Shown here: piece after piece, positions 7,156-56,463 of the stretch
Numbering within the stretch: position 1 is the first letter of the stretch
How the letters are laid out: each line of letters starts with the position of its first letter
Source: Eledone cirrhosa
Lineage: Eukaryota
Reading direction: 5' to 3'
Length of the DNA: 64,000 bases
NCBI GenBank assembly: GCA_964016885.1
Contig: OZ024740.1
Span: 440,510,001-440,574,000 of the forward strand
Translations under genes and position numbers: made by a program
Notes under the pieces: generated by a model
The model's database searches: none
The model's input: only the letters and a program-made list of their open reading frames with translations
Told to the model about the DNA's origin: nothing

Positions 7156-7208
<53 letters not shown>

Positions 7209-11185: not shown

Positions 11186-11241
11186 ACTGCCTGATGAGGT
11201 CATAGCCATTCAATGGCTATCATCGAAATATATATAGCAGT
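11186..11241 (+). ncRNA. Canonical-core minimal HHR
   Basis: ACTGC CTGATGA GGT c ATAGCC attcaat GGCTAT c ATC GAAA TATATA TA GCAGT then AATAAA, in an island of about 165 bp between (TA)n tracts. Confidence 0.85.
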
Positions 11242-11917: not shown

Positions 11918-12593
11918 TCTATGCTAGCAAATATATAATTGTTCATATAATTGTTCTGCATCCCCTTGCATTGAACCACAAAGTTACTAAGACAAAACCT
12001 ATATATTTGCTAGCATAGGTATGCATCTGTATATATATGTTGGTAGATATACTAATTCTTTATAATTATCTCCAAATTATTTTGTTGAGCAAAAATTTGC
12101 CAAAACTGCTACTATAGTTCATAGTAATAGTTCTGCTACTGTCTTCTTAACACCCCACTCCTCACTGATTAACCTCGATGTCACGTGATTGATTCTTTTG
12201 AATTTGCCACCGACCAAGTAGGCAGTGATTTTTTTAATGTCTTGGAATTTAGTCCTCGCTTGCTTTTTTCCATCCACTGAATTATTTTTGTATAAATTCC
12301 CTGTGTCCACGCATTGTCTGGGAACTTAGCTGAGAATTGACTTCTTGATGACGAAAGGTTTTCTCCATGTTGTTCCATTCGGAAACCATGTTTATTCCCT
12401 TTCAGAAACTAATTAGTTTGAGTGAAATTTTAGTAAGTAAGTTAATTTTTATAATTTTCTTATTTTACGTCTTTCATATAATTGTTCTGCATCCCCTTGC
12501 ATTGAACCACAAAGTTACTAAGACAAAACCTATATATTTGCTACCATAGGTATGTATCTGTATATATATGTTGGTAGATATACTAATTCTTTA
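11918..12593 (+). mobile_element. ORF-less HHR element, about 531-nt period (diverged member of family B)
   Basis: 11944-12062 is repeated at 12475-12593. Homologous to 38905-39931, with a degenerate HHR at 12340-12423. Confidence 0.75.
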
Positions 12594-12644: not shown

Positions 12645-12960
12645 TCAGAAGCTCCTGCGTCTTGCGACGCATGAGGCAATCATAGTGTTCCACCGCGTTC
12701 GGTCAGCAGCCAGTTGCACAGCTTCCCGCCATTGTCTGTTTGTCGCTCGCAGGTCCCTCTCAACTGTCTGGCGCCAGTTCATTTTGGGTCGCCCTCTCCG
12801 TCTGCTTCCCTGTGGGTTCCATTTAAGTACTTGGTTCGCCAGTCTCTCCGGGGGAAGTCTCAAAGCGTGCCCAAACCAGCCCAGGAGTCGCTTGCAGATG
12901 GTAGAGAGACTAGCTGCTGGTTGGTGCGGTTCCTGACTTCCTGGTTTGTTACATGGTCAC
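12645..12960 (-). pseudogene. RTE-clade LINE RT C-terminal fragment
   Basis: LGWFGHALRLPPERLANQVLKWNPQGSRRRGRPKMNWRQTVERDL is a typical RTE C-terminus. Confidence 0.8.
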
Positions 12961-13555
12961 TCCATTTAATCACCAGGATTGTTCTCCTGACTGCTTGGAA
13001 TTTAAATCTGATGCACTATGAATTGTTTTCGTAGCAGGAGAGTTTTTCCGGGAACAGGTCGCTAACCTGAAGCCCAACCACTGAGATTTAGTAAAGAGAC
13101 AATAAGTGGAGTAGTCTCTGGTAGAGCTGCAAACCGATGGCCACCATCAGGGTTGCAGGTGTTATATCAGAGTTTTCCTTCTCCTAGAATTCTGCCTTGA
13201 CAAAGGCTAAGGGGTCATCTCTCCCGGTGATTTTGGATGGCCATTGACTCTCAAGAGCTCCTTTGCCCTTTGACAGGTTTTGTTTTTAGTCCTGCAGGAT
13301 GTCCAAAGTCACCCTCCTCACCAAGAAACCTTGGTGGGGTTGCCAGCTTAGTCGCCAACGACCCGACCATGAGACAGGTTGTACTGGGATACATGTTACC
13401 AGTAGAGTTTTAGTTAATTTAGGCGAAATATGTAATCGGCCAGACTAGCCAATTACTAGAGTGTAGACCGATATATTAAGAAATCTGTGTTGTGAGTTTA
13501 CGTGGATTAAAGAAATAGGAAAAATAGATGACAAGAAAAAATTATGGAATGTTTT

Positions 13556-17120: not shown

Positions 17121-17235
17121 TAAATCATGTCCTTAGAATTATTAGATAAAATATATACCATTTCCTCTCCCAATTAGCATATAAAAAATCAATTAGACCA
17201 GGCTATAAGAATAAAGGCTCCTCTGAAGAAATATT

Positions 17236-20200
17236 TGCCTGTGAAAGGGGACAGTATTGCCTGTGAAAGGGTACAGTACTGCCTGTGAAAGGGGGCAGTG
17301 TTGCCCGTGAAAGGGGACAGTTTTGCCTGTGAAAGTGGACAGTATTGGCTGTGAAAGGGGACAGTACTGCCTGTGAAAGGGGACAGTACTGCCTGTGAAA
17401 GGGGGCAGTACTGCCTGTGAAAAGAGACAGTACTGCAAGTGAACGATGACAGTATTGCCTGTATAAGGGGCCAGTATTGCCTGTGAAAGGGGACAGTACT
17501 GCCTGTAAAAGGTGACATTACTGCGTGTGAAAGGGGACAGTATTGCCTCTGAAAGGGGACAGTATTGCCTGTGAAAAAGGACAGTACTGCCTGTGAAAAA
17601 GGACAGTACTGCCTGTGGAAGGGGACAGTATTGCCTGTAAAAGAGGACAGTACTGCCTGTGAAATATGACAGTACTGCCTGTGAAAGGGGTCAGTGTTGC
17701 CTGTGAAAGGGGTCACTATTGCCTGTGAAAGGGGACAGTATTGCCTGTGAAAGGGGACAGTACTGCCTGTGAAAGGGGACAGTGCTGCATGTGAAAGGGC
17801 ACAGTATCGCCTGTGAAAGGGAACAGTATTGCCTGTGAAAGGGGACAGTACTGCCTGTGAAAGAGGACAGTACTGCCTGTGAAAGAGGACAGTACTGCCT
17901 GTGAAAGGGGACAGTACTGCGTGTGAAAGAGGACAGTATTGCCTGTGAAAGATGTCAGTATTGCCTGTGAAAGAGGACAGTACTGCCTGTGAAAGAGGAC
18001 AGTACTGCCTGTGAAAGGGGACAGTATTGCCTGTGAAAGGGGACAGTATTCATTGTGAAAGGGAGCAGTACTGCCTGTCAAAGAGGAGAGTATTGCTTGT
18101 GAAAGAGGACAGTATTGCCTGTGAAAGGGGACAGTACTGCCTGTGAAAGAGGACAGTATTGCTTGTGAAAGAGGACAGTACTGCCTGTGAAAGGGACAGT
18201 ACTGCCTGTGAAAGGGGACAGTACTGCGTGTGAAAGAGGACAGTATTGCCTGTGAAAGATGACAGTACTGCCTGTGAAGGAGGACAGTACTGCCTGTGAA
18301 AGGGGACAGTACTGCCTGTGAAAAGGGACAGTACTGCATGTGAAAGGGCACAGTATCGCCTGTGAAAGGGAACAGTATTGCCTGTGAAAGAGGACAGTGC
18401 TGCCTGTGAAAGAGGACAGCATTGCCTGTGAAAGGGACAGTACTGCCTGTGAAAGAGGACAGTACTGCGTGTGAAAGAGGACAGTATTGCCTGTGAAAGA
18501 TGTCAGTACTGCCTGTGAAAGAGGACAGTACTGCCTGTGAAAGAGGACAGTACTGCCTGTGAAAGCGGACAGTATTGCCTGTGAAGGGGGACAGTATTCC
18601 TTGTGAAAGGGGACAGTACTGCCTGTCAAAGAGGACAGTATTGCTTGTGAAAGAGGACAGTATTGCCTGTGAAAGGGGACAGTACTGCCTGTGAAAGAGG
18701 ACAGTATTGCTTGTGAAAGAGGACAGTACTGCCTGTGAAAGGGGACAGTACTGCGTGTGAAAGTGGACAGTATTGCCTGTGAAAGATGACAGTACTGCCT
18801 GTGAAAGGGGACAGTACTGCGTGTGAAAGAGGACAGTATTGCCTGTGAAAAGGAACAGTACTGCCTGTGAAAGAGGACAATACTGCTTGTGAAAGGGGAC
18901 AGTACTGCCTGTGAAAGGGGACAGTATTGCCTGTGAAAGGGGACAGTATTGCCTGCGAAAGGGGACAGTACTGGCTGTGAAAGGGGACATTACTGCGTGT
19001 GAAAGAGGACAGTACTGCCTGTGGAAGGGGGCAGTACTGCCTGTGAAAGGGAACAGTACTGCATGTCAAAGGGGACAGTACTGCATGTGAAAGGGGACAG
19101 TACTGCCGGCGAAAGGGGACATTATTGCCTGTGAAAGGGAACAGTACTGTCTGTGAAAGGGGACAGTACTGCATGTGAAAGAGGACAGTACTGAACATGA
19201 AAAGGGACACTATTGCCTGTGAAAGGGGACAGCATGGCCTGTGAAAGGGGACAGTACTGCCTGTGAAATATGACAGTATTAACTGTGAAAGGGGACAGTA
19301 CTGCCTCTGAAAGGGGACAGTACTGCCTGTGAAAGAGGACAGTACTGCCTCTGAAAGGGGACAGTATTGCCTGTGAAATGGGGCAGTACTGCTTGTGAAA
19401 GGGGACAGTATTCCCTGTGAAAGGGGACAGTATTGCCTGTGAAAAAGGACAGTACTGCCTGTGAAAGGGGACATTATTGCCTGTGAAAGAGGACGCTATT
19501 GCCTGTGAAATAGGACAGTACTGCCTGTGAAAGGGGAAAGTACAGCCTGTGAAACAGAACAGTACTGCCTCTGAAATATGACAGTATTGCCTGTGAAAGG
19601 GTACAGTACTGCCTGTGAAAGGGGACAGTATTGCCTGTGAAAGAGGGCAGTATTGCCTGTGAAAGGGGACAGTATTGCCTGTGAAAGGGGACAGTACAGC
19701 CTGTGAAAGAGGACAGTACTGCCTGTGTAAGGGGGCAGTACCGCATGTGAAAGGGGACAGTACTGCCTGTGAAAGAGGACAGTACTGCATTTGAAAGAGG
19801 GCAGTATTGACTGTGAAAGAGGACAGTACTGCCTGTGAAAGAGGACAGTCCTCCCTGTGAAAGGGGACAATACTACCTGTGAAAGGGGACAGTACTTCCT
19901 GTGAAAGAGGACAGTACTCCCTGTGAAAGGGGACAATACTACCTGTCAAAGGGGACAGTGTTGCCTGTAAAAGAGGACAGTACTGCCTGTGAAACGGGAC
20001 AGTATTGCTTGTGAAAGGGGACAGTATTGCCTGTGAAAGAGGACAGTACTGTCTGTGAAAGGGGACAGTACTGTCTGTTAAAGGGGACACTACTGCCTGT
20101 GAAACAGGACAGTATTGCTTGTGAAAGAGGACAGTACTGCCTGTGAAAGGGGACAGTACTGCCTGTGAAAGGGGACAGTACTGCGTGTGAAAGAGGACAG

Positions 20201-23200
20201 TATTGCCTGTGAAAGATGACAGTACTGCCTGTGTAAGAGGACAGTACTGCCTGTGAAAGGGGACAGTATTGCCTGTAAAAGGGGACAGTATTGCCTGTGA
20301 AAGGCAACAGTACTGCTTGTCAAAGAGGACAGTATTGCTTGTGAAACAGGACAGTATTGCTTGTGAAAGGGGACAGTACTGCCTGTGAAAGAGGACAGTA
20401 TTGCTTGTGAAAGAGGACAGTACTGCCTGTGAAAGGGGACAGTACTGCCTGTGAAAGGGCCCAGTACTGCGTGTGAAAGAGGACAGTATTGCCTGTGAAA
20501 GATGACAGTACTGCCTGTGAAAGGGGACAGTACTGCGTGTGAAAGGGGACAGTACTGCGTGTGAAAGAGGACAGTATTGCCTGTGAAAAGGAACAGTACT
20601 GCCTGAGAAAGAGGACAATACTGCTTGTGAAAGGGGACAGTACTGCCTGTGAAAGGGGACAGTATTGCCTGTGAAAGGGGACAGTACTGGCTGTGAAAAG
20701 GGACATTACTGCGTATGAAAGAGGACAGTACTGCCTGGGAAAGGGGACATTACTGCGTGTGAAAGAGGACAGTACTGCCCGTGGAAGGGGGCAGTACTGC
20801 CTGTGAAAGGGAACAGTACTGCATGTCAAAGGGGACAGTACTGCATGTGAAAGGGGACAGTACTGCCGGCGAAAGGGGACAGTATTGCCTGTGAAAGGGA
20901 ACAGTACTGTCTGTGACAGGGGACAGTACTGCCTGTGAAAGGGGACAGTACTGTATGTGAAAGGAGACAGTATTGCCTGTTAAAGAGGACAGTTTTGCCT
21001 GTGAAAGGGGACAGTATTGGCTGTGAAAGGGGACAGTACTGCCTCTGCAAGAGACAGTACTCCCTGTGAATGTGGGCAGTGTTGCTTGTGAAAAGGGAAA
21101 GTTTTGCCTGTGAAAGGGGACAGTATTGGCTGTGAAAGAGGACAGTACTGCCTGTGAAAGAGGGCAGTACTGCCTGTTAAAGAGGACAGTACTCCCTGTG
21201 AAACAGGCAGTACTGCCTGTGAAAGGGGACAGTACTGCATGTGAAAGAGGACAGTACTGAACATGAAAAAGGACACTATTGCCTGTGAAAGGGGACAGTA
21301 TTGCCTGTGAAATGGGACAGTACTGCCTGTGAAATATGACAGTATTAACTGTGAAAGGGGACAGTACTGCCTGTGAAATATGACAGTATTAACTGTGAAA
21401 GGGGACAGTACTGCCTCTGAAATGGGACAGTACTGCCTGTGAAAGAGGACAGTACTGCCTCTGAAAGGGGACAGTATTGCCTGTGAAATGGGGCAGTACT
21501 GCTTGTGAAAGGGGACAGTATTCCCTGTGAAAGGGGACAGTACTGCCTGTGAAAAAGGACAGTACTGCCTGTGAAAGGGGACATTATTGCCTGTGAAAGA
21601 GGACGCTATTGCCTGTGAAGTAGGACAGTACTGCCTGTGAAAGGGGACAGTATTGCCTGTGAAAGGGGACAGTACTGCCTGTGAAAGGGGAAAGTACAGC
21701 CTGTGTAACAGAACAGTACTGTCTGTTAAATATGACAGTATTGCCTGTGAAAGGGGACAGTACTGCCTGTGAAAGGGGACAGTATTGCCTGTGAAAGAGG
21801 GCAGTATTGCCTGTGAAAGGGGACAGTATTGCCTGTGAAAGGGGACAGTACAGCCTGTGAAAGAGGACAGTACTGCCTGTATAAGGGGGCAGTACCGCAT
21901 GTGAAAGGGGACAGTACTGCCTGTTATAGAGGACAGTACTGCATGTGAAAGAGGGCAGTATTGACTGTGAAAGAGGACAGTACTGCCTGTGAAAGAGGAC
22001 AGTACTCCCTGTGAAAGGGGACAATACTACCTGTGAAAGGGGACAGTACTTCCTGTGAAAGGGGACAATAGTACCTGTGAAAGGGGACAGTGTTGCCTGT
22101 GAAAGAGGACAGTACTGCCTGTGAAACGGGACAGTATTTCTTGTGAAAGGGGACAGTATTGCCTGTGAAAGAGGACAGTACTGTCTGTGAAAGGGGACAG
22201 TACTGCCTGTGAAAGAGGGCAGTATTGACTGTGAAAGGTGACAGTACTGCCTGTGAAAGAGGGCAGTGTTGCCTTACAAGGGGACAGTACTGCCTGTGAA
22301 AGAGTGCAGTATTGCCTGTGAAAGAAGGCAGTACTGCCTGTGAAAGGGGACAGTATTGCCCGTGAAATAGGGCAGTACTGCCTGTGAAAGGGGACAGTAC
22401 TGCCTGTGAAAGGGGACAATGTTGCCTGTGAAAGAGGACAGTATTGCCTGTGAAAAAGGACAGTACTGCCTGTGAAAGAGGACAGTATTGCCTGTGAAAG
22501 GGGACAGCACTGTCTGTGAAAGAGGATAGTACTGCCTGTGAAAGAGGACAGTACTGCCTGTAAAAGGGAACAGTACTGCCTGTGAAAGAGTGCAGTATTG
22601 CCTGTGAAAGAGGACAGCACTGCCTGTGAAAGAGGATAGTACTGCCTGTGAAAGGGGACAGTACTGCATTTGAAAGGGGACAGTATTGCCTGTGAAAGAG
22701 GACAGTATTGCCTGTGAAAGGGGACAGTATTGCCTGTGAAAGAGGACAGTACTGTCTGTGAAAGGGGACAGTACTGTCTGTGAAAGAGGACAGCACTGCC
22801 TGTGAAAGAGGACAGTACTGCCTGGGAAAGGGGACAGTATTCCCTGTGAAAGGGGACAGTATTGCCTGTGAAAAAGGACAGTACTGCCTGTGAAAGGGGA
22901 CATTATTGCCTATGAAAGAGGACGCTATTGCCTGTGGAAGAGGAGAGTACTGCCTGTGAAAGGGGACAGTATTGCCTGTGAAAGGGGACAGTACTGCCTG
23001 TGAAAGGGGAATGTACAGCCTGTGAAACAGAACAGTACTGCCTGTGAAATATGACAGTATTGCCTGTGAAAGGTGACAGTACTGCCTGTGAAAGGGGACA
23101 GTACTGCCTGTGAAAGAGGACAGTACTGCCTGTGAAATATGACAGTATTGCCTGTGAAAGGGGACAGTACTGCCTGTGAAAGGGGACAGTATTGCCTGTG

Positions 23201-23871
23201 AAAGAGGGCAGTATTGCCTGTGAAAGGGGACAGTATTGCCTGTGAAAGGGGACAGTACAGCCTGTGAAAGAGGACAGTACTGCCTGTGTAAGGGGGCAGT
23301 ACCGCATGTGAAAGGGGACAGTACTGCCTGTTATAGAGGACAGTACTGCATGTGAAAGAGGGCAGTATTGACTGTGAAAGAGGACAGTACTGCCTGTGAA
23401 AGAGGACAGTACTCCCTGTGAAAGGGGACAATACTACCTGTGAAAGGGGACAGTACTGCCTGTGAAAGAGGGCAGTACTCCCTGTGAAAGGGGATAATAC
23501 TACCTGTGAAAGGGGACAGTATTGCCTGTGAAAGAGGACAGTACTGTCTGTGAAAGGGAACAGTACTGTCTGTGAAAGAGGGCAGCACTGCCTGTGAAAG
23601 AGGACAGTACTGCCTGGGAAAGAGGGCAGTATTGCCTGTAAAAGTGTGCAGTATTGTCTGTGAAAGAGGGCAGTACTGCCTGTGAAAGAGGACAATACTG
23701 CCTGTGAAAGAGGGCAGTACTGCCTGTGAAAGGGGACAGCACTGCCTGTGAAAGGGGATAGTACTGCCTCTGAAAGTGGACAGTACTGTCTGTTAAAGGG
23801 GACAGCGCTCCCTGTGAAAGTGGACAGTACTGCTTGTGAAAGGGGACAGTATTGCCTGTGAAAGAGGGGCA
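17236..23871. repeat. Satellite of about 6.6 kb, 22-bp unit TGCCTGTGAAAGGGGACAGTAC (about 300 copies)
   Basis: Continuous tandem array with variant units and recurring multi-unit blocks. Confidence 0.97.
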
Positions 23872-24025
23872 CCACTGATCGCTTTTAGATGTCCTGTATT
23901 AAGCGCCAAAATATCTTGATCTCGGTTTTACAGCTGATGAAGGATTTCTTTTCTTCTCTTGTTTTGTCCATCTTAAACTTTGTTTACAGTAACCACACGG
24001 CTCCTTTCGTTTCCTATAATTTTGA

Positions 24026-25258: not shown

Positions 25259-25456
25259 ATAATGAAGGAAGTGTGGTAAGGAACCAGGTGGACCATAACG
25301 CACCAGAGTACTCAATACTTAGGGTAGTAGAGTGGGTAATAGGAAAATGTTCAAGACCCCGACGGCAGAGCTCAAGCCGTTTCGACGGCTATTTCTGGAA
25401 TCCCGAAATAGCCGTCGAAACGGCTTGAACTCTGCGGTCGGGGTCTTGAAGACTTT

Positions 25457-25460
<4 letters not shown>
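25259..25460 (-). mobile_element. Fold-back half-HHR element (4433 family)
   Basis: Same palindrome and tail as 4433-4627. Confidence 0.75.
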
Positions 25461-25490
<30 letters not shown>

Positions 25491-26919: not shown

Positions 26920-27000
<81 letters not shown>

Positions 27001-27004
<4 letters not shown>

Positions 27005-27180
27005 AAAGAGTCAGGACCCCGACGGCTGAGCTCCGGCCGTTTCAACAGCTAGGTCGAAACGGCCGGAGCTCAGTCGTCGGGGTCCTGAATCTTTAATTAT
27101 TACCCACTCTACTACTCTAAGTATTGAGTACTCTGGTGCGTTATGTTCCACTTGGTATCTTGCCACACCTTCTTTATTAT
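27001..27180 (+). mobile_element. Diverged fold-back half-HHR element (4433 family)
   Basis: gacccc gacggctgagctccggccgtttc aacagctaggtc GAAA CGGCCGGAGCTCAGTCG TC GGGGTC, plus the shared tail. Confidence 0.7.
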
Positions 27181-30180: not shown

Positions 30181-30233
<53 letters not shown>

Positions 30234-30235
<2 letters not shown>

Positions 30236-30667
30236 TAGAGTAAAACATGTCCAGAGAATCAATTGATAATATATATACAACATCTCTATTCCCAATCAGC
30301 ATAATTAACCACACAAAATCAATTAGACCAGGCTATAAGAATAAAAGGCATCTATGAAGAAATAGTAAACAAAATATACCATTGCGGCGTCTTCGCGCAC
30401 AACCGCTTGTGCGGAAGACGCCGCAATGGTATATTTTGTTTACTATTTCTTCATAGATGCCTTTTATTCTTATAGCCTGGTCTAATTGATTTTGTGTGGT
30501 TAATTATGCTGATTGGGAATAGAGATGTTGTATATATATTATCAATTGATTCTCTGGACATGTTTTACTCTAGTATTTTGCTCTGATTATTTAATTCATT
30601 GAGCCACAACGGTGAAAAGTTGCCAAAACACATATATACCTCTGACTTTGTTTAATTGGTGTATGTG

Positions 30668-30940: not shown

Positions 30941-31102
30941 TAATTATATTGTGTTGATTGTTACATAAGAAAATGAGGGTTTTTTTAAAGGATATAAAAA
31001 CGAGATGTTCTACACGAGTGAAAGTATAAGGAAAAGAAGTCGAAAATGCAACTGGAGTCTTTTAAAGAATATTTATTTGTTTCCTTTACCCTCCCCAAGT
31101 AT

Positions 31103-31184
<82 letters not shown>

Positions 31185-31191
<7 letters not shown>

Positions 31192-32309
31192 TTAGAAACA
31201 CACAGATACATGCGGACACACACATATACATGAATGCATCCACACCCAACCGTGAGTTAATGGTGCCAACCTCACCGATGTTGCTCACTGAATGACTGGG
31301 ACAGACCAATCCGGTTGAATTAGACTGAACCAGTATCAGAGTTAAAAATACATTATGAAGAGAGAAGAAACATTTAGATATAATTAGTAATAAAATGTAT
31401 CATACCTAAACTGCTCCTAGATTCCTCGACTACGTAGTTTCGTGGCATAAACAAAAACAATACATCATAAAGATATAGAGTCCTTGCGAGGTCTGCCGAC
31501 TTATCAAGAGGATACCTCATTTTACTAGCGTCAAGAACGCGTCTACACGACGTGAGAAAGAATCCCAAAAGGCGGAGGGGGAGATAGTCACGCGATATAA
31601 CGGTCGAGAAACAGAGCTAAGCCTCTTATAACCCCGAAGAAAATACCACGGAGGCGGAGGGGGTATTTATATCGAAGCCGTAGAAGAGGTGGTGAAGGAG
31701 GCGAGAAGTATGAGTAATGGCCGCTTTCCAGCTCTGATACTGGTTCAGTCTAATTCAACCGGATTGGTCTGTCCCAGTCATTCATTGAGCAACATCGGTG
31801 AGGTTGGCACCATTAACTCACGGTTGGGTGTGGATGCATTCATGTATATGTGTGTGTCCGCATGTATCTGTGTGTTTCTAAATATATTGTTAATAACTCC
31901 CTCTGGTCGAGTAATCTTTGAAGTGTGGTGACTGCTGGAAAGCGGCCATTACTCATACTTCTCGCCTCCTTCACCACCTCTTCTACGGCTTCGATATAAA
32001 TACCCCCTCCGCCTCCGTGGTATTTTCTTCGGGGTTATAAGAGGCTTAGCTCTGTTTCTTGACCGTTATATCGCGTGACTATCTCCCCCTCCGCCTTTTG
32101 GGATTCTTTCTCACGTCGTGTAGACGCGTTCTTGAAGCTAGTAAAATGAGGTATCCTCTTGATAAGTCGGCAGACCTCGCAATGACTCTATATCTTTATG
32201 ATGTATTGTTTTTGTTTATGCCACGAAACTACGTAGTCGAGGAATCTAGGAGCAGTTTAGGTATGATACATTTTATTACTAATTATATCTAAATGTTTCT
32301 TCTCTCTTC

Positions 32310-32314
<5 letters not shown>
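31185..32314. mobile_element. Inverted dimer of retrozyme-like family A with permuted arms
   Basis: The minus arm (31185-31730) and plus arm (31732-32314) start and end at different points of the same unit of about 590 nt. HHRs at 31423-31512 (-) and 32154-32243 (+). Confidence 0.8.
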
Positions 32315-32354
<40 letters not shown>

Positions 32355-32825
32355 GGATTAACAAATAATAGTTAAATGCAGTCCACTTAGGTGAAGTCCA
32401 GTTATGGTATTCCAGGTAGTGGATGATATTAACGCTTGGCTTGGTTTGACTCAACAAGGCGTTTTCATAGTGATGCTGCAGGTATGCTGTAATTCCTATG
32501 TTGTAAACACTTGGAGTAATAATATATCAGGAAAGAAGGTTTACATGGTTTGCTATACAAAAAAGTTTTTAATCACATAGCTTACATTTGTTTCACTGAA
32601 CTGGTATGTCTAGAGATCGCTATCCGCTTAATTTTGCGTTACTCGATCGCCAATACAGAATTATAACCAGTCAGATCTTCGGAGCATGCGAGAATGAAGA
32701 AAATACACAGGCAAGAAAAGAAAAGAAAATACAGGCTACTATCTTAAGTAGTAATGGCATTCAATTAGAACAATAACAACAATTACAACAATGCTATCAA
32801 TAAATTATTTAAGGAGACCCTGATA

Positions 32826-33904
32826 ATTAAATCCATAGCACGTAGTATATCACACCGAATATCCCGCTTATCCTCAAACCTAGAAATCTTTAACGAGCAT
32901 GCTGACTATTATAATGCAGCATTAAGTAGGGCCGGTCATAAAGATAAACTACAGTATATAGTGAATAAGGACAACATAAACAATCCTAGTAATTACTACT
33001 CCAACCGCTCACATAATAATAGGAATAGCTTGATTAGACATAGGGTTAGACATGTAACACCTAGAGTAAACGGCCAAAACACTAATAACGTAAACCCAAG
33101 AAACAATAGAAGAAACAGACAAAGAAAATACCTATGGTTCAACCCAATATTCAACTCCTCTATAAAAACTAGACTGCCCTCTACATTCTTTAAACTAATA
33201 GATAAACACTTCCCTATCTCGCATAGATATCACAAAATACTCAATAGATCTACTATTAAACTCTCATTCTCAACAGCAGCTAACATAGAATCACACATAC
33301 GCAAGATCAACCACAGAAATATCTCTAGTAAATCAATTGCACCTATACATAAGCACAAACTCATCACAACATCACAACCACAAGCGCATACAAACGCGCA
33401 GCAGCAAAACCCCATTGGGCATATATCACAACCCACTTATAACAGAGTACTAAACAGGAATGTAAAAGCTGCACAAAATAGCGCCTCAAACTGCAACTGT
33501 CACCTCCCAGATAGGTGCCCATTGGCGAACAGGTGTCTCGATTCGAGCCTGGTGTACATGTGCACTGTCATCTCGGGTAACTCCACTTGGAATTACATAG
33601 GATCCACCGCGGGTTCTTTTAAGAAAAGATGGTATGTGCATAGGCACTCAATGAAAAACCGTGCACTTATGGGTTCCACTACCCTCGCCAGAAAAATATG
33701 GGAATTGAAGGACAGCAACACTAACTACAGTATCAACTGGTCGAAGTTGTCGGCTGCTAAGGGATGTCCTATTGCGGGCTGTGTGATCTTGAGCTATTGT
33801 ATATCCTTAGAAATGTTAAAATGCTACTTAATAATAAGTTAGAAAGATCTATCTTCTGCAGACATAGAATAGCCACTAAATTCATAAGATTCAAACCTCC
33901 GTGA
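32826..33904 (+). pseudogene. PLE RT-thumb/Asn-rich linker/GIY-YIG, frameshifted near the C-terminus
   Basis: ISHRISRLSSN...WFNPIF...CNCHLPDRCPLANRCL...VYMCTV...YIGST...FKKRWYVHRHS. Homologous to 51454-52788. Confidence 0.85.
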
Positions 33905-34661
33905 ATCGAACCAACATAACATAGCTTTAAATTAGGATACCTACTACCCACAGAAATATATTCATTAAGTATACTATATCCTTCACAAGTCTATACCACA
34001 CAATTGTCTGTAAGTACCTCATCTACCAACAATCTTACTCCTTCTCATTTGATCCTAAATCCTAGTTTTTCTCATTTCACTACTACAATGTTACTTTACC
34101 TTCTTTTTGCCTTAATTACAATTAGCACGCTTTTCTCTTTGCATGTATGTATATTTGTGTACGAGTGTATATTGATGTGTATGTATGTGTCTATGTACAC
34201 ATGCATGTGTATATATGTGTATATATATTTATATATATGTGTGTGTGTGTGTATGTGTATGTGTGTGTGTGTGCGTAAATATATGCGTATATTAATTCGT
34301 TAACCTCTGTATTAACTCTACAACTATTTAGCTTTGACAGTGGTCCCACTCATGTATACTGTTGAAGATGAAGAGAAAGACTGTAAAAACTAGCTTATCT
34401 TTATAATTTAAAATTGATATACACTACGATACTCTGTACATGTCAACACTTCATTTTGCCTTATGACAGCTAGTTTTCACGCCGTAACATTAGATACATT
34501 ATATACCCCCCACCTAAGTAATGTCAGGGTCTCCTTAAATAATTTATTGATAGCATTGTTGTAATTGTTGTTATTGTTCTAATTGAATGCCATTACTACT
34601 TAAGATAGTAGCCTGTATTTTCTTTTCTTTTCTTGCCTGTGTATTTTCTTCATTCTCGCAT

Positions 34662-34767
34662 GCTCCGAAGATCTGACTGGTTATAATTCTGTATTGGCGA
34701 TCGAGTAACGCAAAATTAAGCGGATAGCGATCTCTAGACATACCAGTTCAGTGAAACAAATGTAAGC
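34662..34767 (+). ncRNA. HHR (CCGAAGA core) with stem-II insert of about 60 nt
   Basis: GCT CCGAAGA T CTGA CTGG...CCAG t TCAG T GAAA CAAATG TA AGC. Confidence 0.65.
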
Positions 34768-34822
34768 TATATGATTAAAAACTTTTTTGTATAGCAAACC
34801 ATGTAAACCTTCTTTCCTGATT

Positions 34823-34880
<58 letters not shown>

Positions 34881-34934: not shown

Positions 34935-34995
34935 TATTCTATTATATATATTTCAAGGATACCAAAACTTTGGTACGCTTTCATCAGATAAAATA
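34935..34995 (-). ncRNA. Canonical-core HHR
   Basis: TATTTTAT CTGATGA AAG c GTACCAAA gt TTTGGTAT c CTT GAAA TATATA TA ATAGAATA. Confidence 0.8.
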
Positions 34996-35078
34996 TGAAG
35001 TTTGTTTTATAAATATTGACATATCCAGGAATGAGACCTTAACGGTTCAAGTTTTACCTAAATATATATATTTCTTAA

Positions 35079-35163
35079 ATTACCAACAAATTAAATATCC
35101 CTTTGCTTATATATATATATATATATACAATACAATAGGAGGCAACATAATAGCACCACTGAC

Positions 35164-35228
<65 letters not shown>

Positions 35229-35306
35229 TCAGTGGTACTATTATGTTCCCTCCTATTGTATTGTATATATATATATATGTAAGCAAAAGGATATTTAATT
35301 TGTTGG

Positions 35307-35310
<4 letters not shown>
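35079..35310. repeat. Fold-back with a (TA)n tract at its axis
   Basis: ttaccaacaaattaaatatcc...caccactgactatg (TA)n catattcagtggta...ggatatttaatttgttggtaa. Confidence 0.8.
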
Positions 35311-35343
<33 letters not shown>

Positions 35344-35485
35344 TAACCGTTGATAAACATTGATTGCCAAATAAATTAACTATGGAGATACAGAAGCGAA
35401 AACTAACCAAACAGTGTGTTCTGTTATTATTTCTGGCAATATTATTACAACAATATGACCCTCTCCAAGTATGACAATATATATA

Positions 35486-36384: not shown

Positions 36385-37255
36385 CCTACCTGGTGGCAAG
36401 GTTGTAAAAGAAAAGAAATTGTCATCCCTTGAATCGCAAGAATGTTTTGCAAATTTTGAAGGTGCCAGCTATCGCAGCCATTTGTAGACTATGAATTAGG
36501 AAGCTGCGCTCTTTGTCCGCAAATCCAAGTTCAGTTATACATTGGTCCAATCGGGTTGGTATATAACCTGTAGCTCCAATAATGATGTAAAGGTGTATCT
36601 TGGATACTGGATTTGTAAACTCCTCATCAATGGTCCGTAGATGTCCTCCTTCTCCTGTATTTTTCTGACAACGTTTACATCAAGTGGGCAGCTGATCTCC
36701 ACAACAGAACACGTTTTCAATGTGTGGTCCCAAACAACAATATCAGGCCGGTTGTGCTTTAATTTGGTGGCAGTTTTTATTTTCAGGTTCCACCAGTATT
36801 CCTTAGTGCCATCTGTCTCAATATATTTTTCCTGTTTGTTTTTAATTTTGTTTTCCGAAGTGCCTTCCAGATGGTTCTAGCTATCCCATCGTGCCTCATG
36901 GGGAGGTAGTAGCGAGATGACATTCTTTCGCAGCTGGCAACAATCTGGCTTACATCCTCGATCTTTGTTTTACATAGCCTACATTTATTGTCAGCTGCTG
37001 GCCCTCCCCTTTTGTGCAGCAGATATTTGGTAGAGAGTTCTTGTTCCTGTATTGCATAGAGATATCCCTCAAGGTGTGATGTCATAAACTTGTTGGAACT
37101 CCATGCCAGGCTTTTTGAGTGGTTTATCCCCTCCATGGTATCAAAAGTATCCATGCACAACTTTTTCTGTAAATTGGTCAATTTTTTCATCTTGTTTGAA
37201 CATTGAATAGGATCTTCCGATTTCTCTGGGTGAGAGATTTATATCAGGCTTTATT
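36385..37255 (-). mobile_element. RLE-type non-LTR retrotransposon 3' fragment (R4/Dong-like)
   Basis: CRLCKTKIEDVSQIVASC (degenerate CCHC), RHD, KHNRPDIVVWDH...VVEISCP (PD..E nuclease), ending GTFKICKTFLRFKG*. Frameshifted and embedded in (ATGT)n/ATGTAATT repeats. Confidence 0.8.
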
Positions 37256-37835
37256 CCATATCTCTCCTCCATATCTCTATGTATGTATGTAATTATGTAT
37301 GTATCTATGTATATATGTATGTAATTATGTATGTATGTGTGTGTATGTATATATGTAATTATGTGTGCATGTATGTATGTAATTATATATATGTATATAT
37401 GTTTGTATGTATGTATGTACGAATTATGTTTATATTTATGCTAGAATATTAAAGGTTCCGTTTAAAGGGGGGACCAAAGTACTTAATGTGGTATGTTGGC
37501 GCACTGATCACGTTGCCCAATGGTAAATGGGCCACAGGGTGCCTACAGTAGCATTACAAGAGCCCACGGTAGCATTGCAGGGTCCACTCTAGTATTTTAG
37601 GAGCCAATGCCTAGCTTTCAAAAAATACCCGATGTCTAAGAGAAAGAATAACATTTTTTAAAAATAAATAAAACAATTAAGCAAAGTATTTGGTCAACCA
37701 ATTCCCCAGGGCATTACTAGAAACCAAAATATACCATAGTGTAAATAGCTGGAATCAGTGGTTGTACATTCTACTAAATCTAAAGATTAGTGTATTCATT
37801 CATGCATGCAAACATACATATATAGACACACACAA

Positions 37836-38326: not shown

Positions 38327-39242
38327 ATATATATATATATATATATACACAGAATTAGTATATCTACCAACATATGCGTACAGATGTACACTAATGCTAG
38401 CAAATACATAAGTTATGTCATAGTACCTAGGTGGTTCAATGCAGGAAAATGCAGAACAATAATATGAAAGACGTAAAATAAGAAAATTTAAAAAAAAATT
38501 AAAAATTAACTTACTTACTAAAATTTTCACTCAAACTAATTAGTTTCTGTAATGGGATAAAGATAGTTACGTAATATAACCATCGAGAATTCATTACGTC
38601 ATCAGGGAGTCTATTCTCAGCTAAGTCTCCAGGCAATGCGCGGACACTGGGGACTCATATAAAAATAATAATAATTCGGTGGAAGGAACAGCTAGCGGAG
38701 ACTGGATTCCATGCACTGAAAAAGTTCGCTGCCTCTGGTCAAATGGCAGATTCTAAAGAATCAATCACGTGACACTGAGGCTAGTCGGAAGGAGTGGGTT
38801 GGTAAGATGACAGAAGCCTACTACCACACCAATGAATTAGTAGCGGATTTGGCAGGTTTGCTCAACAAATAAATAATTTGGAGATAAATACAGAGAATTA
38901 GTGTATTTGCTAGCATTAGTGTACATCTGTACGCATATGTTGGTAGATATACTAATTCTCTGTATTTATCTCCAAATTATTTATTTATTGAGCAAACCTG
39001 CCAAATCCGCTACTAATTCATTGGTGTGGTAGTAGGCTTCTGTCATCTTACCAACCCACTCCTTCCGACTAGCCTTAGTGTCACGTGATTGATCCTTTAG
39101 AATCTACCATTTGACCAGAGGCAGCGAACTTTTTCAGTGCATGGAATCCAGTCCCCGCTAGCTGTTCCTTCCACCGAATTATTATTATTTTTATATGAGT
39201 CCCCAGTGTCCGCGCATTGCCTGGAGACTTAGCTGAGAATAG

Positions 39243-39324
39243 ACTCCCTGATGACGTAATGAATTCTCGATGGTTATATTACGTAACTATCTTTATCCCA
39301 TTACAGAAACTAATTAGTTGGAGT
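39243..39324 (+). ncRNA. HHR, palindromic stem III
   Basis: ACTCC CTGATGA c GTAATG...CATTAC a GAAA CTAATTAG TT GGAGT. Confidence 0.8.
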
Positions 39325-39785
39325 GAAAATTTTAGTAAGTAAGTTAATTTTTAAATTTTTTTTAAATTTTCTTATTTTACGTCTTTCATATTATTGTTCT
39401 GCATCCTCCTGCATTGAACCACCTAGGTACTATGACATAAATTATGTATTTGCTAGCATTAGTGTACATCTGTACGCATATGTTGGTAGATATACTAATT
39501 CTCTGTATTTATCTCCAAATTATTTATTTGTTGAGCAAACCTGCCAAATCCGTTACTAATTCATTGGTGTGGTAGTAGGCTTCTGTCATCTTACCAACCC
39601 ACTCCTTCCGACTAGCCTCAGTGTCACGTGATTGATTCTTTAGAATCTGCCATTTGACCAGAGGCAGCGAACTTTTTCAGTGCATGGAATCCAGTCCCCG
39701 CTAGCTGTTCCTTCCACCGAATTATTATTATTTTTATATGAGTCCCCAGTGTCCACGCATTGCCTGGAGACTTAGCTGAGAATAG

Positions 39786-39867
39786 ACTCCCTGATGACGT
39801 AATGAATTATCGATGGTTATATTACGTAACTATCTTTATCCCATTACAGAAACTAATTAGTTGGAGT
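39786..39867 (+). ncRNA. HHR, tandem copy 543 nt downstream
   Basis: Same motif as 39243-39324. Confidence 0.8.
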
Positions 39868-39978
39868 GAAAATTTTAGTAAGTAAGTTAATTTTTAATTT
39901 TTTTTTAAATTTTCTTATTTTACGTCTTTCATATATATATATATATACTTACACATATACACGTACTATTGACCAAAT

Positions 39979-40225: not shown

Positions 40226-40380
40226 ACGGCTATTTCTGGACAGTCCAGAAATGGCTGTCGAAACGGCTTGAGCTCTGCCGTCGGGGTCTTAAACATCTTC
40301 CTATTACCCTCTCTACTATTGTGCTTTCTTGTGCGTTATGGTCCACCTGGTTCCTTACCACACTGCCTTCGTTATCTAAT
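40226..40380 (+). mobile_element. 4433-family element starting at the stem-II 5' strand
   Basis: acggctatttctgga cag tccagaaatggctgtc GAAA CGGC...TC GGGGTC, plus the shared tail. Confidence 0.7.
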
Positions 40381-41119
40381 ATATATTTGTGAAATGGGTG
40401 GTGGTTGAAATTCAGTTGTGCACGGTTAAATGGTAGTAGACGTGGTCGGACTGACATGAAGATTTATACACCTATGTAAAAAGTGCCAAGGAAGCAAATA
40501 GACGATGTTTCAAATCTCTAACTTGAAAAATGTGGTCCCTGGTGCCCCAAAACTATCGCGTTCGGTGTGTTGTTTCCCCCTGTTCTAATACTTTTGTCTT
40601 ATTTACAATTTCATACACATAAAGCAGTAACATCCCGTAGTAAGACCTAAAAAAATGGTTAGATACACCATGACGCACCGTGCATCACGGTGGAGTTGAA
40701 AAGCAGACTCAGAACATGGCGTTGTGTGGGGGTGGCTCGCAGCCCAATGTTCCAGGGGGAGAAAAAGAAGAAGAAGAAGAAGAAGAAGAAGAAGAAGAAG
40801 AAGAAGAAGAAGAAGAAGAAGAAGATGTGAGCTGGAGTCCTATCAAATATGTAGGTTGTGTCTTAAATTGAAGGTTTAGTAGAAACAATTCATGTATAGT
40901 TTTGTACTTTTCTTTTTGTCATTCATATATAAACAAATCTACTATATAAATTGGAAGTGGTCGGACGTTGTATATGTAGGTGTAGTCGGATAAACGTCGA
41001 AACGGCTTGGTGGAATGCAGCGAAAATTTACACAGTTATGCAGAATGATCCGAGGGGGCGTTGGGTCAACTTTCAAGCTATGGTTACGGAGAAAATCGAT
41101 GAAACAGGAATTTCCCATT

Positions 41120-45609: not shown

Positions 45610-45646
<37 letters not shown>

Positions 45647-45652
<6 letters not shown>

Positions 45653-45893
45653 ATACTTGGGGAGGGTCATATTTGTGTAATATTGCCAGAATTAATAACA
45701 GAACACACTCACTCTTTGGTTGGTTTTCGCTTCTCGCTGTCTTTTATATCTGCGATCTAACTTAATCGGTCCTCAATGTTGCTATTGACTGACCGACGGT
45801 CAAAAATAATACAGATACAATATAGACACAAACACATATATATAGTTTACATAAATCTTTCGTTGCACATCTGCAACATCGTCAGTGGTGTTA

Positions 45894-45930
<37 letters not shown>

Positions 45931-46873
45931 GTTATATTTTTTCCTCCTGTTGTGTTGTATGTCTACGCCTTTTTTATTCAGTCTGTCTATATATTTATTT
46001 ATTTATTTGCTTGTTTGTTTATTTTATTTTGTCTTTGCGCATGCGTTTGCGTGTGTGTACAGTGTTGTGTGTGCTGTGTGACTAGTGTGTATAGTGTTGT
46101 GTCTGCTGGGTGACTAGTGTGTGTTTATGTGCTTGTTGTTATTGTGCTTGTGTATGTATTTATTTATCTTATTTTATTTTATTTTATTTTATTTTATTTT
46201 ATTTTATTTATACTTCCCTTAGGTCAGTGTTGTTTGTAAATAAATAAATAAATAAATAAATAAAATAAAATAAAATAAAATAAAATAAGATAAATAAATA
46301 CATACACAAGCACAATAACAACAAGCACATAAACACACACTAGTCACCCAGCAGACACAACACTATACACACTAGTCACACAGCACACACAACATTGTAC
46401 ACACGCAAACGCATGCGCAAAGAAGACAAAATAAAATAAACAAACAAGCAAATAATAAATAAAGATATAGACAGACTGAATAAAAAATGGCGTAGACATA
46501 CAACACAACAGGAGGAAAAAATATAACAAAAAAAAAAATAAATAAAAAATAAAATAAAATATAACACCACTGACGATGTTGCAGATGTGCAACGAAAGAT
46601 TTATGTAAATTATGTAAACTATATATATGTGTTTGTGTCTATATTGTATTTGTATTATTTTTGACCGTCGGTCAGTCAATGGCAACATTGAGGACCGATT
46701 AAGTTAGATCGCAGATATAAAAGACAGCGAGAAGCGAAAACCAACCAAAGAGTGAGTGTGTTCTGTTATTAATTCTGGCAATATTACACAAATATGACCC
46801 TCCCCAAGTATAACAATATTTGTTTCGACACACGATTTCATATAAAAAACCTCGCTAAACTAATTCATCGCCG

Positions 46874-46875
<2 letters not shown>
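45647..46875. mobile_element. Fold-back of two PLE 3' UTRs (same family as 2495-3946), arms of about 570 bp
   Basis: About 45647-46235 versus about 46240-46818 inverted, with HHRs in both arms. Confidence 0.9.
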
Positions 46876-46947: not shown

Positions 46948-47181
46948 CCATATATATTTATATGTATATATATGTATATATATATATAGTTATGTAATAA
47001 ACAACATAAGGCAATTATTTCATTTACCAGTGGTTTCTTGAAAGCAAACAAATTTTGCTTTCAATCATCAGAATGAAAAAATCCTGGTGTATTTATTGAC
47101 ACTGGATTTTAAAAACAAAAATATAATCTATATGAAAGTGAGGCTGGAAAAGGAAGAAGGAAAGGAAAAATAAACATACAT

Positions 47182-47308: not shown

Positions 47309-48697
47309 CATCATCATCATCATCATCATCACCGTTTTACGTCCGTTCTTCCACGCTAGCATGGGTTAGACGGGTTGTCCTGTTGTGGGCAGTGTCTCGT
47401 CGGCTGACCAAGCCTTGCTCATACAGGAACTGATTTGGCTTGATTTCTACAGCTGGATGCCCTTCCTAAAACCAACTTCATTTACAGTGAGTGCTGGGTG
47501 CTTTTTCTTGACGCCTTACACGTCCATTTTACAGTGTGGGCTGGGTGCTTTTTTGCTGTGGCACCTCCATGACCACCTTGCAGTGGGAGGATGTGGGGGC
47601 ATATTGTCTATATGCTTCAGCTTGTACCCATGGGAGGTCAGGTACTCTGTATTACTGCGTGACGCCAGAGGTCACGGTCGTGTGTCATCGCCTTTGAGAG
47701 GTGTAATTGGGTAAGGTCGGTTTTTATCACCTCATCCCAGGTCATCTTGGGTCTCCCCACTCCGCGGTTTCCATCGACTTCTAGTGCTCTGCACCTTTTT
47801 ATGCAGCTGTCATCCTTCACACGCATCACATGTCCATACCAACGTAACCGCCTCTCCTGCACACAGCATTTGATTCCTCTTATGCTCAGTCTCTCTCTCA
47901 ATTCATTTATGCTTTGTCGTTCGCGTATATTACTGTTACACCTCTATCGGAGCATGCAGGCTTCGTTTCTCTCTAATCTACGTAAGTCTTCCACCTTCAG
48001 CGCCCAGGTCTCACTACCATGTAACATTGCTGTTCGGATACACGCATCATACAGTCTGCTTTTCATTTTGAGGGAGAAGCCCTTTGTAGTTAGCAGTGGC
48101 AGTAGTTCCCTGAACTTCTTCCATCCCGTTCTTACCCTAGTTATTGTACTTTCTGAACACCCACCTCCGCTGCTAATTTGGTCACGTAGGTAGCAGAAGC
48201 TGTCTACTATTTCTACAGAGCCCTCCCAGAGATTGGTGGTACTTGTTTCCTGTGGCTGTTTGCTGCTTGCTGTCCCAGTAGAGTTGCTGCATGTGAAGCC
48301 TACATTCTTAATTAAGCTTCTTGAGATCCCGCTACATCTCTTGTGTACCCATTGTTTGCATTTGGGGCAGAGAATGGAGTTCCTACCTACACCTTTCCTA
48401 CTGAGCAAGGCCATTTCCCTGAGGGGATCTGGGTTCTGTTTTCTCGTCTACTTACAAGATCCTTAGTCTTTGTCATGTTGACTTTGAGACCCTTTCTTTC
48501 TAGTCCCTGCTTCCAAGTTTGGAATTTCTTCTCTAGTTCTACCATAGATTCAGCTATGAGTGCGAGGTCATCAGCATACAGGAGTTCCCATGGGCATCCG
48601 GTCTTAAACTCCTCCGTTATTACCTGCAGGACTATGATGAACAGGAGAGGGCTAAGAACAGAGCCCTAGTGGACCCCAACCTGTACGCTAAATTCCT
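47309..48697 (-). mobile_element. RTE (BovB-like) LINE, 5'-truncated, degenerate RT ORF, (GAT)n tail
   Basis: GSVLSPLLFII...WELLYADDL...GRNSILCPKCKQWVHKRCSG...MLHGSETW...RRLRWYGHVMR...GRPKMTW, with (cat)n at 47309-47331. Confidence 0.9.
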
Positions 48698-49321: not shown

Positions 49322-49446
49322 CATACATATACACAAACACATACATACAAATACATACACACACATATATGAATGTGTGTGAAACTCATTCTTAGATGTA
49401 TTCATATGAATCTTGTTTAACTCTTAAATATATATATATAGAGAGA

Positions 49447-50372
49447 GAATTCACAGGAATCAAAGCTATGTTCAAAGCATTTATTCGCTTACAATTGTTT
49501 CATCCAAACCGAGGGTTGGATTCTTCGGACCATTTTACAATGTTTGTACACATACATGACCTCCTTTCCAACGCAAGAGACATACAGATACATATGTATA
49601 TATTGATGTACAGTGGGGTGACATATATTATATTATTTCTGAATGACAATTTAAATTCAAAAGCTAAATCACATTAAAACAGAATCAAAGCAAAATTAAA
49701 ATTAAATTACAACATCAATGCAAAATTAAAATATAATCGGCAGTTAACGTAGATAATGCAAGATTATAGTTTGTTAGTCAGTTGTAGTAGTTATTGTATG
49801 CATTAGTTACACGTGGGGCATGCACGTGTGTCTTATTTATATATGATTATTGTGCGGCATACAATAACTACTACAACTGACTAACAAACTATCCTCTTGC
49901 ATTATCTCGTTAACTGCCGATTATATTTTAATTTTGCATTGATGTATTTTAATTTTGATTTTGCTTTGATTCTGTTTTAATGTGATTTAGTTTTTGAATT
50001 TAAATTGCCATTCAGAAATAATATAATATATGTCACCCCACTGTACATCAATATATACATATGTATCTGTATGTCTCTTGCGTTGGAAAGGGGATCATGT
50101 ATGTGTACAAACATTGAAAAATGCTCCGAAGACCACAAGCCTCGGTTTGGATGAAACAATTGTAAGCGAATAAATGCTTTGAACATAGCTTTGATTCCTG
50201 TGAATTCTATACAACTGCTCTGTAGAAAAAATGATGTTATTACATTGAGCTATTTATCTTACTGGTAATAAGGTAGTAATAAATTATTGACTTTCACTGT
50301 TTAGGGTTTAAAATATATATAACTATAAAGAGTTTTAGTATATACATAACCATAAATAGTATCCTTAATACT
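49447..50372. mobile_element. Fold-back of a PLE 3' end (relative of 50391-54490), arms about 49447-49800 / 49858-50207 plus tail
   Basis: Inverted arms, HHRs at 49486-49532 (-) and 50122-50168 (+), and a tail homologous to 54330-54490. Confidence 0.85.
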
Positions 50373-51453
50373 ATATACATATATATATATATATGAAATA
50401 TAAGAATCAAAGAACTGTTCAAAACATTATTGTGCTTACAGCTGTTTCCTCCAAACCGAGGTTTGGATTCTTCGGAGCAATTTATTAATGCATGGACAGT
50501 TATATGACCTCCTTTTCAGCCGAGAGACATACCGATACATATTCAAACATTGATACATATTCAAACATTGTGGGTCAACATTCATTACAGAATTTAGAGT
50601 GGCAGTACACACTTCGAGATTACATTTATATTAAGAGGTACAATCAAAAATCAAAATACAGGTTAAAATATAGGTTAAAATACAACATGAAGATAAGTGG
50701 TTATATAGTGCAAATGTTATATGTGTGGCACGCATGTGTGTCTTGTTTATATAGTGTGGCAGAGAGATATGTGTGGTAGAGGCACTTAGGTAGGTAAGCA
50801 AGAGTGTTAGGTTGGTAGATCTGGTGGCAAATTCTTTATATGATTGATATAGTCTGTGTGTGGAAAAATATTATAAGCATTAAAAATAGTGCAAGCATTA
50901 AAAGTGTTAAAAGTATTGGAGATGCACAGCGCAGGGAAGTCAAGTATTTCATGTACTTCGGCATTTTCATGGTCAGGGGAGTGTATTTATCGATTATATG
51001 CCTTTCACATAATCCACGACAATCCAGTTAGAGATCGTAGTCTGGTGTTCTTTAGTTCAATACAGGAGGCTGTTCCGTTTCGAGAAACGCCATTGAATAC
51101 TGCCCGGAAGTGTGTGTGTGGCTAAGGGGAGTTAATGCATGCGGGGAGGTAACTCTGGGGTTTCTATACCTAGCTATTAAAATGTGTCCCAATATAGACC
51201 TTAATTTCTATGGTGATGCGCATCCTCCAAGAGAAATTTTTAAAGCATAAAGTGTATTAACTATAGAGTAGTTTAATTAAGTTATGCTGAAGGTGATCAT
51301 ATTATTATGGTGGATTAACCCATCGTAAGGTGCCACAAATGGAAATTATAGATGATGAGCGAGGATTCCAAATAATGATCTCTGTGGTCGTAGTCTACTC
51401 ATATTCTACTTATAGAATATAAAAAATTTAATATAGAAAGAACTAGAAAGCAA

Positions 51454-54240: not shown

Positions 54241-54287
54241 TGCTCCGAAGAATCCAAACCTCGGTTTGGAGGAAACAGCTGTAAGCA
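54241..54287 (+). ncRNA. HHR (CCGAAGA core), palindromic stem III
   Basis: TGCT CCGAAGA a TCCAAACC tc GGTTTGGA g GAAA CAGCTG TA AGCA. Confidence 0.75.
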
Positions 54288-54487
54288 CAATAATGTTTTG
54301 AACAGTTCTTTGATTCTTATATTTCATATAACTGCTCTGTAAATCATGTGATGTTTTTACATTGAGCTACTTAACTTACTGGTAATAAGGTAGTAATACA
54401 TTACTGCCTATCACTATTTGGGTGTGTGTAAAATACTTATAACTGCATAAGGTTTTGTATTTACATAACCATAAATAGTATAACTAA

Positions 54488-54553
<66 letters not shown>

Positions 54554-54961: not shown

Positions 54962-55026
54962 TATTTTGTCTGATGAAAGCGTACCATAATTTAACATGGT
55001 ATCCTTGAAATATGTATAATAAAATA
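54962..55026 (+). ncRNA. Canonical-core HHR (family of 34935)
   Basis: TATTTTGT CTGATGA AAG c GTACCAT...ATGGTAT c CTT GAAA TATGTA TA ATAAAATA. Confidence 0.8.
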
Positions 55027-56376: not shown

Positions 56377-56463
56377 TATAAATATTGAGTTTTGTCATAA
56401 CCAATTCACTGCCATGACCGAATTGTAACCATCAACATAGTCAAGGTATGTCAAGCATCAACT

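Follow-up and report, generated by a model that had tools for sequence, protein, structure and literature searches.

Penelope-like retroelements (PLEs) are described as inserting in the form of partial tandems, often with an inverted and 5′-truncated copy placed directly at the 5′ end (PMC8557442; PMC3846280). The account of insertion structure in PMC8557442, with which those in PMC2377424 and PMC8969392 agree, adds a tail of 30–40 bp that is often present at one end only, a bias towards microsatellites and the existence of non-autonomous forms; how PLEs come to insert as tandem and inverted copies with a tail on one side is called unresolved there. A PLE protein has been reported to cut and extend both strands of AT-rich DNA; its reverse transcriptase (RT) reportedly initiates mainly on uncleaved RNA, at a pair of internal positions that delimit the tail and have no homology to the cut DNA (Frangieh et al, 2024; PMC11167929).

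The minimal hammerhead ribozymes (min-HHRs) described from PLEs have a short helix I of 4–5 bp, a U3-A8 core and a palindromic helix III that requires a dimer, and they occur as pairs on opposite strands 100–700 bp apart (Cervera and de la Peña, 2014; PMC4209133). Metazoan non-LTR retrozymes have in turn been proposed to be non-autonomous PLE derivatives (PMC7229834). A 2026 preprint lists consensus lengths of 51–972 bp for them and calls a retrozyme “active” if two or more of its units follow one another in tandem and each of them carries a ribozyme (bioRxiv 10.64898/2026.07.22.740005).

Here we describe a two-arm locus of a short repeat family, family A, in a window (the whole 64-kb stretch of DNA that was analysed) of repeat-rich, animal-like sequence. 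We consider family A to be, in all probability, a non-autonomous PLE of the non-LTR-retrozyme type with a predicted ribozyme, inserted head-to-head with an inverted 5′-truncated copy, and we lean towards two primings as the way in which this arrangement arose.

The family A unit and its copies

All-against-all BLAST of the 64-kb window, with masking, placed family A at two loci, the dimer at 31185–32314 and a further copy at 5650–6294, with matches far above chance (E 0 to 7e-77). A closed unit of 593 nt was built from the plus arm (31732–32314) and a 10-nt junction (31342–31351); its positions are counted from u1 = 31732. The features of the two loci are as follows:

31732–32314, plus strand: plus arm, u1–583, reaching u587 (32318) with one mismatch and ending at the short 3′ end
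31185–31732, minus strand: minus arm, u203→593→1→157, 548 nt, a 5′-truncated copy that reaches the long (“tailed”) 3′ end
31342–31351, minus strand: unit junction gtatttttaa (u584–593), not in the plus arm and identical in the copy at 5650–6294
31889–31933, plus strand: u158–202, found in the plus arm only
31185–31351, minus strand: 167-nt tail (u584–u157), extending beyond the short 3′ end and containing the unit junction
31107–31185, no strand: (TA)n target, left flank
32313–32353, no strand: (TA)n target, right flank
5650–6294, plus strand: second family A locus, u533→593→587, a partial tandem of ~1.09 units flanked by TA runs

The two arms lie head-to-head and meet at their 5′ ends, where 31732 is the one shared base. 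Aligned to each other, they form a single ungapped block of 548 nt with four mismatches (99.3% identity), and these four differences include private changes in both arms; to the second locus each arm is 94–96% identical. There, positions 5650–5710 match u533–593 at 100%, junction included, and the copy has a 55-bp terminal direct repeat resembling a pseudo-LTR and carries 28 mismatches as well as indels. TA runs adjoin all four outer ends of the two loci, and since the target is (TA)n, a target-site duplication is unreadable. Immediately to the left of the (TA)n flank at 31107–31185 lies a 27-nt fragment of the 3′ end of another family, family C (31080–31106), so that at least three different insertions are nested in this tract. 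Just upstream of the copy at 5650, positions 5351–5613 have a direct duplicate of 263 bp at 13143–13405 with 98.5% identity.

The earlier note had described the locus as an inverted dimer whose arms are different circular permutations, the minus arm starting mid-unit and crossing the junction between the end and the start of the plus arm. Mapping both arms onto the 593-nt unit bears this out (u1–583 against u203→593→157): the arms are not colinear and do not share their ends. The conclusion drawn from it, that the unit has no fixed termini, is not supported. Two of the three family A copies stop at u583–587, 76–80 nt beyond the predicted cut site of the ribozyme motif described below, and the third, the minus arm, ends at u157, one tail of 167 nt further downstream. 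Only the 5′ ends vary (u1, u203 and u533), as expected from 5′ truncation. Because the long end was observed once in family A, its fixity rests on analogy with other families. The note was also right that both outer ends adjoin (TA)n, but the microhomology priming that it proposed is weak: only 1 nt of the minus arm and 2 nt of the plus arm (5/6 if a mismatch is allowed) overlap exactly with (TA)n, and each end ranks within the top 29 of 593 positions by one of four window definitions only and as low as 293 of 593 by the others. Given this inconsistency across the four definitions, the ranking was discarded as evidence. The structure had thus been described correctly, but a PLE tail combined with 5′ truncation had been mistaken for a lack of termini.

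As the minus arm crosses the unit junction, its template contained that junction, be it in tandem or in circular form. Both arms are held by 750 nt of linear tandem RNA (u1→593→157), which makes a circular template possible yet unneeded.

Predicted ribozyme, coding capacity and affinities

By motif scan, all three family A copies contain a minimal type I hammerhead motif:

32154–32243, plus strand: hammerhead motif of the plus arm, predicted cut after 32238, which leaves 76 nt to the short end
31423–31512, minus strand: hammerhead motif of the minus arm, core at 31507, predicted cut after 31428
core at 6137, predicted cut at 6214, plus strand: hammerhead motif of the copy at 5650–6294, by the same scan

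The motif comprises a 5-bp stem I, a UUGAUAA core with a covariant U3-A8, a long stem II, GAAA, a palindromic CUACGUAG helix III and a GUC cleavage triplet. The scan returned 14 matches in the window against none in each of 20 dinucleotide-shuffled windows, and in shuffled units it matched one of 2,000. Cofolding of two motif copies yields the canonical hammerhead topology, with −58.9 kcal/mol for the dimer and −22.6 kcal/mol per monomer. The plus-arm RNA has a stable predicted fold (z −5.4), and a long hairpin precedes each of the two 3′ ends by 10–20 nt. In all three copies the predicted cut site, u507/508, is crossed unchanged. Scanning the whole window with Rfam gave no hammerhead among the 150 listed of 172 matches, which were mostly microsatellite noise, and the same scan of 32100–32300 gave two chance matches and no ribozyme family. 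Read from the sequence, the family A hammerhead is a predicted self-cutting RNA motif.

All six reading frames of the 593-nt unit are broken by stops, and the RT plus GIY-YIG ORF of an autonomous PLE is absent from it. Compared with the coding PLEs of the 64-kb window, the unit gave no sign of a coding remnant or of helper homology (best tblastn E 0.057, no blastn match), and 3′-end homology between family A and an autonomous PLE was likewise not found within the 64-kb window. A candidate intron of 81 nt (u530–u17, GTATGA...TTCAG) runs from 32261–32314 through the junction to u1–17 and spans the short 3′ end. It consists of a donor-like GTATGA 22 nt past the predicted ribozyme cut, a TACTAAT, a pyrimidine tract and the first AG 81 nt on, and resembles the 75-bp Penelope intron; a GTAAGT is similarly placed near 39880 in family B (see below). 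The AG-free run of the candidate is only the third longest in the unit and unexceptional.

Compared with PLE insertions as described for Penelope/Poseidon, Neptune and Naiad (PMC8557442; PMC3846280; PMC2377424), family A shares the inverted 5′-truncated copy, a partial-tandem terminal repeat (5650–6294), the targeting of (TA)n and a minimal hammerhead motif shortly upstream of the 3′ end. Unlike them, it has no ORF, a unit of only 593 nt and an inverted junction without a palindrome. The extension on one of its arms, a probable tail seen once, measures 167 nt, four to five times the 30–40 bp given for published PLEs; tails of 160–170 nt are also present on neighbouring coding PLEs. With metazoan non-LTR retrozymes, as far as these are characterized in the sources cited above, it has in common a non-coding closed unit with a type I hammerhead, a length within the 51–972 bp range, the co-occurrence with PLEs and the presence of copies of more than one unit. 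The retrozymes studied carry a canonical hammerhead, whereas the ribozyme of family A is of the minimal PLE type. Two ribozymes in direct tandem, the arrangement of “active” retrozymes, were not seen at the two family A loci of the window, where the longest direct copy has ~1.09 units. The motif itself agrees with the Schistosoma and metazoan min-HHRs of PMC4209133 in its 5-bp helix I, U3-A8, palindromic helix III and opposite-strand pairing at a distance of ~650 bp, and departs from those described there in a loop II of ~55 nt and, apparently, in having no unpaired base between A9 and G10.1.

On these sequence features, family A fits as a non-autonomous PLE, and its likeness to retrozymes lies in the short non-coding unit and the predicted hammerhead. 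L1 elements offer a further comparison. In L1 twin priming, both ends of the target prime, which leads to a head-to-head inversion with an almost blunt junction. Family A shows the same head-to-head arrangement and almost blunt junction, but its arms cover the same 3′ region and ribozyme, overlapping for most of the unit, and there is no poly(A) tail. We are highly confident that family A is a non-autonomous Penelope-like retroelement.

Asymmetric inverted loci in the window

A local inverted-repeat search of the window returned 37 rows, 14 of which were dropped (two pairs between separate loci, four rows from one dispersed family, six microsatellite rows, and 35041–35351 and 61062–61125, both uninterpretable). 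The remaining 23 reduce to 17 loci, and in all 17, as classed by eye, one arm meets a simple repeat while the other continues for another 25–170 nt before the next one, a gap that the script cuts short at internal TA runs in locus 779 (25 instead of ~66) and locus 49446 (104 instead of ~163). Loci with both arms flush with a simple repeat were not encountered (0 of 17). Hammerhead matches are present in eight loci and in none of the other nine; in the eight, the 3′ ends face outward and the cut lies ~42–125 nt from the short end. A relaxed ribozyme scan of 14 regions gave matches in two only.

Paired fixed 3′ ends are also found in families B, C and D of the window. Family D uses the same short and long ends at all four of its inverted loci, with tails of 76, 79, 77 and 77 nt, and motif scans found no ribozyme in it. 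In family B the long end is used twice and the short end once, and in family C (main locus 45645–46874) the short end is used four times and the long end twice.

Several observations extend the description of these families. Family B (38348–39930; 11942–12592) has a non-coding unit of ~544 nt and a hammerhead with a CUGAUGA core, a palindromic helix III and a GUU cut; one of its arms runs for 1.9 units across two ribozymes and is accompanied by an inverted arm with a tail of ~120 nt, and its 12-kb copy stops at the same long end. Very short palindromic insertions of family D lie at 4431–4625, 6925–7156, 25262–25461, 26999–27177 and 40226–40386. Solitary hammerhead motifs with a CUGAUGA core occur outside the counted inverted loci at 11191–11236, 34943–34987, 54970–55018, 47025–47071 and 56472–56521, one of them near a GIY-YIG-type remnant (56105–56419).

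Directly to the right of the family A dimer lies a separate element:

32354–34825, plus strand: neighbouring 5′-truncated coding PLE with an inverted arm of 302 bp and a 168-nt tail

This element shares the architecture of family A and has no sequence homology to it. Its ORF (32769–33842) contains an RT thumb, a Cys linker and a GIY-YIG-type domain, motifs that were recognized by eye. The ORFs at 51394, 32769 and 1792 match full-length proteins, P0001–P0005, with RT(YRDD), Cys-linker and GIY-YIG-type parts. The RT and GIY-YIG assignments of the PLE ORFs rest on motifs seen by eye: in a Pfam search of 10 window ORFs the four PLE-like ORFs remained without a match, and P0001–P0005 had sub-threshold matches only (GIY-YIG, E 0.069 on P0001). 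The label Neptune-like is a tentative one taken from the description of the linker in PMC8557442.

A second 5′-truncated coding PLE (50390–54490) has an ORF at 51394–52788, an Asn-rich linker and a 1-kb inverted arm, and a short family related to it occupies 49441–50371; both carry a hammerhead variant with a CCGAAGA core. The tails of 50390–54490 and 49446–50371 measure ~160–163 nt and end at a homologous position. On the minus strand, 3027–3980 holds an ORF of 317 aa with a GIY-YIG-like motif, seen by eye, in an inverted locus with a 47-nt tail; other PLE proteins do not match this ORF at E 1e-4, so it possibly represents a different PLE lineage. The window also contains a tandem array of ~6.6 kb (17228–23877; unit ~22 bp, ~85% identity among copies), a LINE-like element (60459–63865) with an ORF at 60459–61217 followed by an endonuclease and RT ORF at 62087–63865 (Pfam Exo_endo_phos, RVT_1), and other non-LTR retrotransposon fragments at 47638–48669, 36535–37440 and 12645–12956, including a PHD-finger-containing piece and a zf-RVT piece.

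Origin of the two arms

The copies of family A directly show its unit, its motif, where it ends and that its target is (TA)n. For the step that produced two arms, we lean towards separate primings on the two sides of the target. A PLE RT-GIY-YIG protein, acting in trans, would bind a tandem or read-through transcript and cut a (TA)n tract on both strands. The cut ends might then serve as primers, each at one of two internal positions where reverse transcription preferentially starts, u583–587 and u157, which lie 167 nt apart, and the two cDNAs would halt at variable 5′ points (u1 and u203) before being joined head-to-head almost bluntly, with one shared base. A short tandem unit with fixed short and long 3′ ends and variable 5′ truncation leads to arms that resemble different circular permutations.

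A stronger version, in which the asymmetry of one short and one long arm is obligatory and both arms derive from one RNA by coupled twin priming, is a tentative idea that we regard as rather doubtful. If the two sites were chosen independently, the pattern at 17 loci would have a chance of ~0.5^17, a figure that takes the loci as classed by eye and includes nine without a ribozyme match. In such a coupled reaction, a dimer of the PLE protein would span the tail and initiate a cDNA at the site on either side of it; the cDNA primed at the tail would then push the first one off and copy that RNA a second time. PLE RTs are not known to have RNase H and could strip away an earlier cDNA.

Other origins have to be weighed against two primings. 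One alternative is a circle lacking termini, on which rolling-circle reverse transcription would begin at any AT-rich point, with priming by (TA)n microhomology. Such a template would explain why the minus arm crosses the unit junction, why the predicted cut site is passed unchanged in every copy and why family B possesses a 1.9-unit arm, and circular RNA templates have been proposed for PLEs (PMC4209133) and shown for metazoan retrozymes (PMC7229834). We nevertheless find this origin improbable: arbitrary starting points disagree with the 3′ end common to two of the three copies and with the paired fixed ends of families B, C and D, the overlap of 1–2 nt is not consistently exceptional, the 750-nt linear RNA is enough, and unprocessed RNA is reported as the dominant PLE substrate in vitro (PMC11167929). 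A circular template with fixed start sites would be compatible with the two-priming explanation as well. We have similarly little confidence in a fold-back origin, in which one long cDNA snapped back to serve as its own template, and the minus arm afterwards lost u1–202 through an asymmetric deletion in the middle of the palindrome. Self-priming has been proposed for PLE inverted junctions (PMC3846280), several small loci of the window are near-perfect palindromes (e.g. 4431–4549 and 30232–30576), and the high identity of the arms (99.3%) is in keeping with it. Each arm, however, holds sequence that is missing from the other (u584–593 and u158–202), the junction has no palindrome but merely a 4-bp ccag/ctgg pair, and whereas simple fold-back of a cDNA primed at the tail predicts that the tailed arm retains more 5′ sequence, it is the untailed arm that does so in family A, in family B and at 32354–34825. 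Simple fold-back fails on the arm-specific sequence and on the longer 5′ part of the untailed arm, so that the extra central deletion is needed; fold-back alone accounts for neither arm as a copy of the other.

That the arms inserted at separate times, or that they are a fold-back artefact of reads or assembly, is very unlikely in our judgement, even though several insertions are nested in the (TA)n of this site and complex PLE loci are described as troubling assemblies (PMC8557442). The centre contains neither a TA run nor a duplication, and the arms are 99.3% alike compared with 94–96% to the other locus; the four arm differences with private changes in each arm, the flanks that are not mirrored (best local score 18) and the same layout at 17 loci also speak against such an origin. 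Terminal inverted repeats with common ends are a hallmark of MITEs, and a terminal CTRR is one of Helitrons. A DNA element, either a MITE or Foldback with long terminal inverted repeats or a rolling-circle element of the Helitron/Helentron type, would suit the long inverted arms and the TA-rich target, but we give it hardly any credence: the arms stop at different positions of the unit, the copy at 5650–6294 is a partial tandem in direct orientation, the element carries a ribozyme motif and none of the three copies has CTRR at its very 3′ end.

The architecture of a head-to-head inverted copy with a one-sided tail has already been published for PLEs, and the locus is in this sense mostly ordinary. 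It adds a 593-nt non-autonomous Penelope-type family that looks uncatalogued, as judged without Repbase and Dfam, and the odd phase shift between its arms is explained by known PLE rules. The remaining interest lies in the long tails and in the consistent asymmetry of one short and one long arm. In the literature searched there is no report of tails of 110–170 nt or of an obligatory asymmetry, a point on which the supplements of PMC8557442 and of the retrozyme preprint may bear. A genome so rich in young, short and asymmetric insertions would permit the direct counting of 3′ ends and arm pairings, and the 750-nt RNA is a convenient template in vitro. If coupled priming is true, tails of 110–170 nt together with tiny units like that of family A would be handy substrates for studying inverted PLE insertions.
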